Shown here in pieces: positions 1 to 2,268 of a DNA stretch of 2,312 bases (position 1 is the stretch's first letter; the number at the start of each line of letters is the position of its first letter). The translations under genes and the position numbers were made by a program. Under the pieces are notes generated by a model. It did no database searches. It saw nothing but the letters and a program-made list of their open reading frames with translations, and was not told the DNA's origin. Location of the stretch: NCBI RefSeq assembly GCF_044324785.1, contig NZ_CP172133.1; one strand, written 5' to 3'. The DNA comes from Escherichia coli (GTDB lineage: Bacteria; Pseudomonadota; Gammaproteobacteria; Enterobacterales; Enterobacteriaceae).

Positions 1-44
1 CGTGTACAGGATACTCCTGTAACGTGTGGGCGGTATTCCCGTAA
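1..44. repeat. Two tandem 22-bp iteron-like direct repeats (1-22 cgtgtacaggatactcctgtaa; 23-44 cgtgtgggcggtattcccgtaa), upstream of the repL-like gene
   Basis: Head-to-tail 22-bp units with 15/22 identity to each other; unit 1 is 19/22 identical to the unit at 2291-2312. Each unit starts cgtgt and ends gtaa. No spacers, so not CRISPR. A 22-bp period is typical of plasmid iterons. Confidence 0.55.
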
Positions 45-52
45 TCTATATT

Positions 53-118
53 GAGTGACATTTTGTTTTTTGGGCATTATATTGTCTGTCACCTTTATAA
101 AGTGACAAAGGCGATAAA
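53..118 (+). promoter_or_regulatory. Putative promoter/operator region of the repL-like gene, with three GTGACA/TGTCAC hexamers (55-60, 87-92, 102-107) forming an inverted repeat around a palindromic cTTTATAAAg core, and a weak AAGG ribosome-binding site at 108-111
   Basis: Inverted hexamers tgtcac (87-92) and gtgaca (102-107) flank the palindrome ctttataaag (92-101), with another gtgaca at 55-60. Possible -35 TTGAGT (51-56) and -10 CATTAT (75-80). The promoter hexamers are weak and the assignment is tentative. Confidence 0.3.
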
Positions 119-616
119 ATGAACATTACTGAAAGAACGGATAGCAAGAAAAAAGTTTTAAGACAAAATATTACTGAGGTTATAGATAGAGAAACTGGAA
201 ACATAACACAAGAAATAACCGATATAACAGTTCAATTTCCACAAGAACCTGCGTATGTGAAAATTTATATTGATAATTTATGTGCTGTCACAAAAGCACC
301 TGATTCTCTAAAAGATGTTTTATTTTTAATTCTTAGGAAATTGGATTATGACGGATATATTGCATTATCAACTAGATACCGTAAGGAGATCTGTAAATTA
401 TTGGGAATAAAAGACGGAACATTACGTAACAGATTGTATTCATTATCAAAAATGGGGATTATTGCTAGTTGTGGCGGTAATGAATATCAGGCGAACCCTA
501 ATTTATTTGCTCGTGGTGAATGGAAAAAAATAATTGAACAGCGTCGCGAGTTTGAAATGAGAATTAAATATTCACCTAACGGTGAAACTATTATAACAAC
601 CGAAGAAATAAAATAA
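119..616 (+). CDS. Winged-helix DNA-binding protein, RepL-like plasmid replication initiator (165 aa)
   Basis: Intact ORF, ATG at 119 and TAA at 614-616. By-eye similarity to the staphylococcal pSN2 RepL family as I recall it: YVKIYIDNL resembles FVKAYIVQL, the central segment LSTRYRKEICKLLGIKDGTLRNRLYSLSKMGII resembles the RepL helix-turn-helix/wing, and NPNLFARGEW resembles NPELLMRGDD. Iteron-like repeats lie immediately upstream. Confidence 0.7.
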   Translation: MNITERTDSKKKVLRQNITEVIDRETGNITQEITDITVQFPQEPAYVKIYIDNLCAVTKAPDSLKDVLFLILRKLDYDGYIALSTRYRKEICKLLGIKDGTLRNRLYSLSKMGIIASCGGNEYQANPNLFARGEWKKIIEQRREFEMRIKYSPNGETIITTEEIK

Positions 617-625
617 TGTGCACCT

Positions 626-655
626 AAATAAGGTCTTTTTAAAAAGACCTTATTT
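626..655. terminator. Perfect 30-bp palindrome (aaataaggtcttttt|aaaaagaccttattt) between convergent genes; putative bidirectional terminator or protein-binding site
   Basis: Positions 626-640 are the exact reverse complement of 641-655. It lies between the repL-like stop (616) and the mobC-like stop (650-652). The stem is AT-rich with a GGTC/GACC core and has no clean downstream U-tract on either strand, so terminator function is uncertain. Confidence 0.35.
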
Positions 656-1075
656 GAATAAATCCGAACCTGGATATTTATTTTTATGTATCCTTTTTAT
701 TATTTTTATTTCATCCTTTATTAAATCCATTTCATTATATACATCAGAAATTCGCTTCGTTACTATTTTCATTTCATCGCAAAGTAAAATTATTTTATGC
801 ATCACCTCGAGGTACTCCTTATCCTTCGGCCGCTTTCCCTTATCAAATAATTTCTTCTGCATCCGACCAAGTCGGATTAATTCATCTAAATACCTGGAAG
901 GTACGCGCTGTTTTATTTCATTATTTAAACTTGCCGTCCTGATATATTCTGAAATTGTCAGTCCTTCGTTCTTCGCTCGCCGTCTGATTTCGCTTGCGAC
1001 TCTGTTATTTACTCTAAGGGTGATAACCTTAGTTCTCTGCCGTACTTCTGAACCACTACGTTTATTTTTAGCCAT
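650..1075 (-). CDS. Ribbon-helix-helix relaxosome accessory protein, MobC/MbeC-like (about 141 aa from the ATG at 1075; the ORF track extends to an upstream GTG at 1174)
   Basis: The N-terminal region has the hallmark basic stretch, beta-strand and helix: RQRTKVITLRVNNRVASEIRRRAKNEGLTISEYIRTASL, matching the KRxxxVxVRLTxEExxxLxxxAxxxGxSxSEYLR pattern of mobilization accessory proteins. I prefer the ATG at 1073-1075 because a GGAGAG Shine-Dalgarno sits about 10 nt upstream (minus-strand reading), whereas the 1174 start is GTG with no good ribosome-binding site. Stop TAA at 650-652. Confidence 0.7.
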   Translation of the reverse strand: MAKNKRSGSEVRQRTKVITLRVNNRVASEIRRRAKNEGLTISEYIRTASLNNEIKQRVPSRYLDELIRLGRMQKKLFDKGKRPKDKEYLEVMHKIILLCDEMKIVTKRISDVYNEMDLIKDEIKIIKRIHKNKYPGSDLFK

Positions 1076-1144
1076 CGCAATGACTCTCCATTTTGCACGT
1101 TTGGGGTGTCGGGGCTTGCCCTGACAGGAGGTATTCTCATGCAA

Positions 1145-1181
1145 GCGAATGTATTCGCGGTATGACGAATACACATCCTGT
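1145..1181. other. Candidate oriT: overlapping inverted repeats (gcgaat-gt-attcgc at 1145-1158; gtattcg-N8-cgaatac at 1151-1172) followed by cATCCTGt (1174-1181), which matches the MOBP-type nic consensus YATCCTG|Y
   Basis: Inverted repeat followed by a nic-like heptamer about 70-100 bp upstream of the preferred mobC-like start, which is the usual oriT placement. The heptamer alone would occur about once by chance in a sequence this size; the adjacent inverted repeats and the position are what make it a candidate. Confidence 0.3.
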
Positions 1182-1524: not shown

Positions 1525-2082
1525 TTAACATTGCTCTTAATATTTATTTTGTCCTGGCAATGGGAGCATTAATCCCCGTGCAGTGCTCCGCCAGCTGCTG
1601 ACAACCTCGACATATAACCATCGATACGATAGAACATCAGGGCGCGTTTCCGGCAAGAACTAACCATGGGGATGGTTTGCGTGCCGACAAACGCCGGAAC
1701 GCGCCTCAAATCCACCAAGCCGCCACGGTTCCGGCAGCGCCTTGAGCGCAACCCGAAACCGTCTGGGGAGAACCCCAGACCCCCACCGCTGCAACATCAT
1801 CGGTCTACGACCACCTACCAACCGAGTGGCTACCTGTGCCGTGCAAACAGGCTTTGCAGGGGGCTGGCGCGGTTCCTGGCGACCTGAAAGCCCCTGGTTA
1901 GGGGTATCGGCGCGCCTGGCCTCCTGAAACCCTCTGTAAGCGTTTTTCGCGCCTTCCATGCCCTGACGGGCATTTAGACCCCGTTTCGTGCGTCTGGGAG
2001 GCTCTGAGCGCGTTTAACAGATGACCAGCGACTCGATCGCCTGAGATCAAATCGGGATCATCAACGATATGCGAGAGGTGAC

Positions 2083-2146
2083 ACCGCTCGCCGCAGCCCC
2101 AGCGACCGAGCCGCCAGGCTCGCGAGTGGGCGAGGAAGCGGAAGAG
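2083..2146 (+). other. Segment homologous to the conserved sequence just downstream of the ColE1/pMB1 origin (the region reported to hold primosome assembly sites)
   Basis: Window accgctcgccgcagcc-ccagcgaccgag-ccgccaggctcgcgagtgg-gcgaggaagcggaagag aligns with pUC19 accgctcgccgcagcc-gaacgaccgag-cgcagcgagtcagtga-gcgaggaagcggaagag from memory, in the same orientation and order relative to the cggttcctggc motif. Confidence 0.55.
2133..2146. repeat. Second copy of the 14-bp direct repeat aggaagcggaagag
   Basis: Exact match to 1438-1451. Embedded in a GGAAG triplet cluster (2134-2156). Confidence 0.8.
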
Positions 2147-2160
2147 AACCGGAAGCTACA

Positions 2161-2178
2161 TTGAGCACGCACGCTCAA
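2161..2178. repeat. Inverted repeat ttgagc-acgcac-gctcaa at the GC-rich/AT-rich boundary
   Basis: 6-bp arms are reverse complements with a 6-bp spacer, read directly from the sequence. Confidence 0.5.
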
Positions 2179-2230: not shown

Positions 2231-2245
2231 ATATTAAAAATATAA
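2231..2245. repeat. Second copy of the 15-bp direct repeat atattaaaaatataa
   Basis: Exact match to 1510-1524. Confidence 0.8.
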
Positions 2246-2268
2246 GATATCCGAATTAGGCTACATAC

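Follow-up and report, generated by a model that had tools for sequence, protein, structure and literature searches.

The 30-bp perfect palindrome that lies between the convergent repL and mobA genes of a small cryptic plasmid of Escherichia coli is probably a bidirectional intrinsic (Rho-independent) terminator, and with it the 3'-end hairpin common to both transcription units. Such a role was among several that an earlier note on this DNA had floated, and it is the one that we favor. The predicted RNA fold, the terminator scores, which pass the thresholds on both strands, and the hairpins at the same junction in related plasmids all point toward it; termination itself is what we infer from them. 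Elements of this class are well known, and the palindrome, though unannotated, is an ordinary example of them on a plasmid that is common and has been sequenced before.

The window, by which we mean the whole 2312-bp stretch of DNA that was analyzed, is a complete cryptic plasmid of the Col(MG828) type. A megablast search against PLSDB returned 19 plasmid records whose coverage of the window is at least 80%, with identities of 96.6-99.9%. Most of the near-identical records are circular E. coli plasmids of 2310-2313 bp that are typed as Col(MG828). Klebsiella, E. fergusonii and Actinobacillus records account for others, and one copy resides within a 79.8-kb plasmid. Essentially the same plasmid is present in assemblies labelled Pseudomonas sp. 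(L031 in Table 1), Actinobacillus pleuropneumoniae and Klebsiella pneumoniae, an occurrence that reflects either a broad host range or assembly contamination.

RefSeq calls two genes on these plasmids, repL and mobA (Table 1). The first is labelled 'replication/maintenance protein RepL' in the identical plasmids, and its product gives a weak match to the Pfam RepL family (E 1.6e-4) that lies above the gathering score. The second encodes a ribbon-helix-helix relaxosome accessory protein (Pfam NikA-like, E 9e-17; NCBIfam MobA, E 1e-28). The earlier note was right to say that the palindrome overlaps the stop codon of this gene, but the name that it used, 'mobC-like', should give way to NikA-like or MobA, which are the best matches and agree with the mobA of the database records. 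No relaxase gene was found on the plasmid, which MOB-suite classes as non-mobilizable, and no recombinase gene is found among the plasmid ORFs. Gene annotation varies among the near-identical copies, with repL absent from some, mobA absent from others, and one copy carrying the label 'nikA'. None of the near-identical records annotates a palindrome or a terminator, and the titles and abstracts of the top-ranked papers on Col(MG828) and RepL small plasmids, which deal with replicon typing or genomic surveys, show no evident mention of the palindrome.

The palindrome reads AAATAAGGTCTTTTT|AAAAAGACCTTATTT, a perfect 15 + 15 reverse-complement match centered between positions 640 and 641. No other perfect palindrome in the window has half-arms longer than 5, and the longest half-arm in 2000 dinucleotide-preserving shuffles averaged 5.8 and never exceeded 11, whether the whole window or its AT-rich part alone was shuffled. 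A 15 + 15 palindrome is far beyond chance, and the earlier description of it as perfect is borne out by the sequence and the shuffles alike. Its placement between convergent genes holds as well: repL ends at 616 on the plus strand and mobA at 650 on the minus strand, and the palindrome occupies the 33-nt gap between them, starting 9 nt past the repL stop codon and overlapping with its right arm both the stop codon and the last Lys codon of mobA (the latter being the reverse complement of 653-655).

Table 1. Features of the plasmid and of the corresponding junction in related plasmids (positions are those of the window unless a handle is given)
Feature	Position	Strand	Description
repL	119..616	+	165 aa; stop codon TAA at 614-616
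mobA (NikA-like)	650..1075	-	141 aa; stop codon TAA is the reverse complement of 650-652
Palindrome	626..655	both	Hairpin plus paired A-tail and T-tail; from sequence and RNA fold
Core hairpin	632..649	both	GGTCTTT-TTAA-AAAGACC; 7 pairs, 3 of them G-C; 4-nt loop
T-tail (U-tract) of repL transcript	650..664	+	TTATTTGAATAAATC; the palindrome's outer right arm supplies the first 6 nt
T-tail (U-tract) of mobA transcript	617..631	-	TTATTTAGGTGCACA; the plus-strand A-tail
Second terminator-like hairpin	862-876	+	TCCGACCAAGTCGGA, then ttaattcatc
Iteron-like repeats (three, tandem, 22 bp)	2291-2312, 1-22, 23-44		CGTGTAGAAGATACACCTGTAA, CGTGTACAGGATACTCCTGTAA, CGTGTGGGCGGTATTCCCGTAA; across the circular junction
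Best sigma-70-like promoter	55-83		
GC-rich block	~1560-2170		57-64% GC
Direct repeat, exact, 14 nt	1438-1451, 2133-2146		AGGAAGCGGAAGAG
Second repeat pair, 89% identity	1509-1526, 2231-2248		ATATTAAAAATATAA..
Imperfect inverted repeat	~1108-1130		TGTCGGGGC..GCCCTGACA
Imperfect inverted repeat	~1150-1173		TGTATTCG-N8-CGAATACA
Same plasmid, L031			Pseudomonas sp. A-RE-19 NODE_63, 2437 bp
Recombinant lineage, L005	560-760 (L005)		Complete plasmid
Recombinant lineage, L040	5011-5087 (L040)		Metagenome contig
Junction hairpin, L004			Arms AAACCCCGCTC / GAGCAGGGTTT
Junction hairpin, L002 and L003			Arms AAGCCCGTCAA / TTGGCGGGTTT
Junction hairpin, L035 and L038			Arms AGCCGATAT / ATATCGGCT
Junction hairpin, L037 and L039			Arms TATAGGTCTTTA / TAAAGACCTATG
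Junction, L006			Canonical terminator CCCGCAGCAATGCGGG, then T-rich tail (ATTTTTTT)

Transcripts of the two strands fold alike, into a hairpin of 13-14 bp with a 4-nt loop. The predicted energy is -15.1 kcal/mol for the plus-strand RNA (z -6.1) and -14.8 kcal/mol for the minus-strand RNA (z -5.2), and on either strand none of 200 shuffles folded as well. The hairpin has a GC content of just 28%, and no other 40-nt window with less than 40% GC folds into a more stable local hairpin. Only three of the 13 pairs in the stem are G-C (G632-C649, G633-C648 and C635-G646), the rest being A-U; this reaches the minimum of our consensus scan (at least 3 such pairs) but is poor in comparison with classical terminators. 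Outside the core, the arms AAATAA (626-631) and TTATTT (650-655) mirror each other. An A-tract that mirrors the T-tract has been described for bidirectional terminators (PMC1852404, PMC12207403), in which flanking A's pair in silico with the complementary T's of the opposite flank, which is the reason that T is barred as the last stem base in the scoring scheme of Kingsford et al. (PMC1852404). The outer AAATAA/TTATTT arms of the 15 + 15 symmetry can be understood in the same way, because the tails of a bidirectional terminator pair in silico.

Terminator potential was scored in the manner of TransTermHP, re-implemented from the published tail formula, Table 1 energies and thresholds (PMC1852404), so the values given here come from code different from that of the original program. 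The thresholds are a hairpin score of -2 or lower and a tail score of -2.5 or lower, with a last stem base other than T. On both strands the hairpin score is -8.5 for the core at 632-649 and -11.2 for an extended stem at 629-652. The plus-strand tail scores -3.97 after C649 and -3.67 after A652, and the minus-strand tail -3.96 when the core is taken as the stem and -3.66 when the extended version is. By this scoring the palindrome is the top terminator candidate of the plasmid on each strand. In 2 Mb of random sequence at 30% GC no candidate equalled it on both scores, and three combined a hairpin score of -10 or lower with such a tail. The earlier objection that the palindrome lacks a clean U-tract is mostly explained by its T-rich outer arm, in which UUAUUU is the U-tract, an arrangement common to most bidirectional terminators; part of the objection stands, in that the tract is still interrupted and the stem GC-poor. 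The tails that follow the core stem, TTATTTGA and TTATTTAG, each have T at five of their first eight bases, and the interruption comes after 6 nt (UUAUUUGAAU and UUAUUUAGGU).

The consensus promoter/terminator scan of the window did not call the palindrome, probably as a consequence of extending the stem into the tails and so leaving a poor tail. An Rfam scan of the whole window gave a lone match, to snoZ118, that we attribute to chance (22.3 bits, where the gathering score is 48; E 0.71). A second terminator-like hairpin, with a hairpin score of -10.0 and a tail score of -3.43, was found on the plus strand about 210 nt past the palindrome, within mobA and antisense to it (Table 1). This hairpin could be a back-up stop for read-through from repL, or it could be there by chance.

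The perfect dyad implies a simple scheme for how the element would work. Transcripts of repL (plus strand) and of mobA (minus strand) would form the same hairpin, with the core GGUCUUU-UUAA-AAAGACC, and on either strand the core would be followed by the outer arm UUAUUU, while the 5' AAAUAA would be an A-tail that doubles as the U-tract of the opposite strand. Whichever side it comes from, RNA polymerase would be expected to pause and release within UUAUUU or just past it, placing the predicted 3' ends at about 655-661 on the plus strand and at about 620-626 on the minus strand, the latter shortly before the repL stop codon is reached. This would spare both genes antisense transcription and keep polymerase from continuing round the tiny circle into the origin/iteron region. 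The hairpin left at the 3' end may also shield each mRNA from 3' exonucleases.

How completely such an element terminates may depend on the ribosome. In the mobA transcript the stop codon is part of the 5' arm of the hairpin, and the repL stop codon is 9-15 nt upstream of the hairpin. Stop codon-to-hairpin distances of 8-59 bp have been tested; at 17-18 bp the result varied with the sequence, and maximal efficiency was seen above 30 bp (PMC4824070). Given how near both stop codons are, termination may be leaky under tight transcription-translation coupling, especially for mobA. Leakiness might even be the point, in that a terminating ribosome would mask the hairpin and the resulting read-through would yield antisense RNA over the opposing gene, making the element a translation-sensitive and deliberately leaky terminator. 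We consider this version very improbable. If it were true, the mobilization gene, the replication initiator and the copy number would be coupled through one 30-bp element, and a variant with an 8-nt insertion that is described below (L005 and L040) would be a natural uncoupled allele.

A related proposal is that the hairpin acts only as an RNA 3'-end stabilizer or pause element, blocking exonucleases or pausing colliding polymerases and causing little release by itself. The weak and interrupted U-tract, the GC-poor stem and the position of both stop codons within the range of ribosome interference are all compatible with this, and there are reported precedents among convergent genes of E. coli. 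The bidirectional terminator between ynaJ and uspE is reported to terminate weakly by intrinsic means in either direction, and Wang et al. (bioRxiv 10.1101/2022.10.23.513370) propose that its hairpin is a pause site that programs head-on collisions. REP325 is reported to act as a dual terminator and stabilizer, and where REPs separate convergent genes, their presence correlates with higher expression of the two genes (bioRxiv 10.64898/2026.03.23.713779). That said, on both strands the palindrome has the scores of a high-confidence classical terminator, and several relatives have clearly canonical terminators, hairpin and T-tract, at the same place. A role confined to stabilization or pausing is on balance unlikely; it overlaps with the main explanation and does not exclude a terminator.

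The relatives in question share one side of the junction and differ in the other. Many Col(MG828)-type plasmids carry the portion of the window from about 650 to 2168, which includes mobA and the GC-rich block, at 88-94% nucleotide identity and have a different repL region. The MobA proteins of the relatives are 73-98% identical to that of the window, while RepL is at most 25% identical or undetectable in seven of them. The closest RepL homologue (64% identical) belongs to L006, from Klebsiella aerogenes, which has a MobV relaxase in place of mobA. A stable hairpin is present at the convergent junction in every relative, and five hairpin sequences other than that of the window were found (Table 1). 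With the window included, the TransTermHP-style thresholds are passed at all 10 junctions in the repL sense and at 7 of 10 in the mob sense. Position and structure are kept at the junction, together with T-rich tails, and sequence is not; this pattern fits what would be expected of a terminator, and not of a sequence-specific protein or recombination site. The comparative support rests on non-homologous hairpins at the same position, the palindrome being invariant within its own type.

The type of hairpin tracks the type of repL and not the similarity of MobA. For example, L037 and L039 have a common RepL and a common hairpin, whereas in MobA identity to the window L037 stands at 87% and L039 at 74%. 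Their hairpin also has the AGGTCTTT/AAAGACCT core in common with the palindrome, and two pairs just outside the GG are flipped, one from A-U to U-A and the other from U-A to A-U. These flips would be compensatory changes if the two hairpins are homologous, which is uncertain. An asymmetry of G-U wobbles in the hairpins of the relatives was considered as a sign of selection at the RNA level and then dropped, since it comprised three cases and any transition gives that pattern.

The stem core itself, AAGGTCTTTnnnnAAAGACCTT, turned up in 24 genome contigs: L031, which is the same plasmid, and 23 from unrelated taxa; viral contigs gave 0 matches. About 10 of the 23 unrelated contigs have poly-A and poly-T flanks (aaaa...tttt), as in Spirabiliibacterium, Chitinophaga and Lishizhenia, and in several the core lies directly past a long ORF or faces a convergent one. 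The core thus appears to be a recurrent, generic terminator solution and not a recognition sequence specific to the plasmid.

These comparisons bear on the earlier suggestion of a protein-binding site, that is, a double-stranded DNA site for a dimeric protein (RepL, MobA or a host factor) that would serve as an operator, in replication or in a manner akin to a partition site. A perfect dyad is typical of the sites that dimers bind, the palindrome always accompanies this type of RepL, and the recombinant plasmid L005, discussed below, retained a 3' remnant of repL together with the palindrome; moreover, the one natural variant of the palindrome is at the central base, where the spacer of a binding site would tolerate a change as readily as would a loop. 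The half-site, however, has no second copy in the plasmid even with up to 3 mismatches allowed, the 3' ends of two genes are not where an operator is located, and plasmids whose MobA is 73-98% identical lack this sequence, so that MobA does not need the palindrome; for RepL the records allow no such separation, since its type and the palindrome are always found together. The unrelated T-tailed hairpins of the relatives fit a role for structure, not recognition of sequence, and RepL has likelier sites in the three iterons upstream of its gene. A protein-binding site is quite improbable on this evidence, and the suggestion goes unsupported.

The three iteron-like repeats span the circular junction of the plasmid and lie directly upstream of the best sigma-70-like promoter and of repL (Table 1). 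The middle one contains an internal dyad, TACAGGA-N3-TCCTGTA. From their arrangement the iterons are likely a RepL binding site, an origin or an operator.

Variation within the plasmid type is sparse. Among 5426 complete E. coli genomes, 26 contain the palindrome, in every case on plasmids and with 0 chromosomal copies. It is unchanged in 19 plasmid records, 24 E. coli genome records (at least 99% identity) and 6 metagenome contigs, records that are too alike overall for the invariance to be informative. A metagenome scan anchored on both flanks found 7 loci, of which six were identical and the other, L040, was the variant also seen in L005; no within-type covariation was available among these 7 loci. 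The lone substitution in the palindrome, a central A641T found in L005 (NZ_CP101218) and L040, falls in the loop. Both records also have an 8-nt insertion, GTTTATTT, past the right arm, which lengthens the plus-strand T-tail, bringing its score to -4.47, and shifts the mobA stop codon outside the hairpin.

L005 is a recombinant. It carries a different repL; after this come about 130 bp left over, with a frameshift, from the 3' end of a window-type repL, and then the palindrome variant. The window-type remnant begins at about position 487, inside repL, and therefore the recombination joint is not at the palindrome. Elsewhere the homology between the window and relatives that have other repL modules breaks off at 650, 654, 656, 657, 666 and 675. 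Taken together, the alignments indicate that module exchange is real and that one of its boundaries is at the convergent gene ends. The earlier placement of the palindrome at a module junction is accurate in that a real module boundary is there; against it, the joint in L005 is inside repL, and the hairpin travels with the repL module.

The coincidence of the homology boundary (650-675) with the edge of the palindrome is also what recommends the other function proposed earlier, that of a site for site-specific recombination or multimer resolution (cer/dif-like Xer, or res) that would serve as the crossover point for modules as well. Xer sites are frequent on small plasmids. But the breakpoints are scattered over 650-675 and not fixed, each repL type has its own, different hairpin, the joint of L005 is elsewhere, and the plasmid has no recombinase gene of its own. 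The best match to the arms of dif, cer or psi anywhere in the plasmid is 15 of 22 positions, and shuffled sequence gives 14.98 on average and at most 18. A Xer site (dif, cer or psi), with its 11-bp arms and 6-8 bp spacer, was accordingly rejected, the match being no better than that of shuffles. With the half-site unique in the plasmid besides, we give a recombination or resolution site hardly any credence.

Finally, the palindrome might act at the level of single-stranded DNA. It could form a cruciform or, should the RepL replicon use rolling-circle replication, serve as a single-strand origin or a signal for priming. The DNA strand does fold well (-10.7 kcal/mol, z -6.5), and the Pfam RepL family is named for replication proteins of Firmicute plasmids, among which the pSN2 group of RepL-type plasmids uses rolling-circle replication. 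The single-strand origins described so far run to about 130-300 nt, far more than the palindrome, and are imperfect and orientation-specific. A symmetric 30-nt hairpin with A and T tails, placed exactly between two stop codons, has instead the signature of a terminator, and a function as single-stranded DNA seems extremely unlikely.

Several other features of the plasmid deserve mention. The GC-rich block stands out from the rest of the plasmid, which has a GC content of about 30%. It is common to hundreds of Col(MG828)-typed plasmids at 85-94% identity, including plasmids of 1597 bp that have neither repL nor mobA. In pECAZ155_4 the block carries a 555-nt CDS annotated as 'rep protein', and the same frame is broken into short ORFs in the window; a Pfam search with the ORFs of the block in the window gave no match. 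The block may be a non-coding origin, or the 'rep protein' CDS may be spurious. Two pairs of repeats, one of them an exact direct repeat, bracket the block (Table 1), an arrangement that suggests a module that was inserted or that has duplicated flanks. The right-hand boundary of homology to the relatives (about 2150-2168) falls at the second repeat copy. Upstream of the mobA start, at 1075, are two imperfect inverted repeats, and a motif in the same region (about 1100-1175), GGGTGTCGGGGC, presumably resembles part of the bom region of ColE1/pBR322. The inverted repeats of this region are candidates for oriT or for MobA operator sequences.

Comparison with known systems places the palindrome closest to the bidirectional terminators modelled by TransTermHP (Kingsford et al. 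2007, PMC1852404). Like them it has a short, stable hairpin that is preceded by an A-rich tail and followed by a T-rich one complementary to it, is located where two genes meet tail to tail, passes the thresholds on both strands, and appears to have a longer stem when its tails pair in silico. It differs from them in the unusually AT-rich stem, with its three G-C pairs, in a U-tract interrupted after 6 nt, and in a symmetry that is perfect over 30 bp and includes a stop codon; its function is a prediction. There is also a likeness to the collision-assisted terminators of Ju et al. 2019, as these are described by Wang et al. (bioRxiv 10.1101/2022.10.23.513370), in which a hairpin with sub-canonical intrinsic features is found between convergent genes. 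As in those cases, both genes that flank the palindrome are presumably transcribed toward it. Collision-assisted elements are said, in that secondhand description, not to resemble intrinsic terminators, whereas the palindrome scores as one.

REP elements (bioRxiv 10.64898/2026.03.23.713779) are likewise extragenic palindromic hairpins at the 3' ends of genes with a possible dual role. Unlike REP elements, the palindrome belongs to no repeated family and is found on plasmids only. The REP consensus is GC-rich, and the palindrome is not known to resemble it. The Xer sites dif, cer and psi resemble the palindrome in being partly palindromic sites of about 30 bp, as might occur on a small plasmid, but it has no similarity to XerC/XerD arms beyond chance and no accessory sequences.

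As a probable bidirectional terminator, the palindrome would mark the 3' ends of the sole two annotated genes of a widespread cryptic plasmid, a result of little import beyond annotation. It would be a candidate for a compact, fully symmetric two-way terminator of 30 bp, which could become a part for synthetic biology if validated. For this plasmid family, it would also explain why there is a module boundary at the convergent gene ends.
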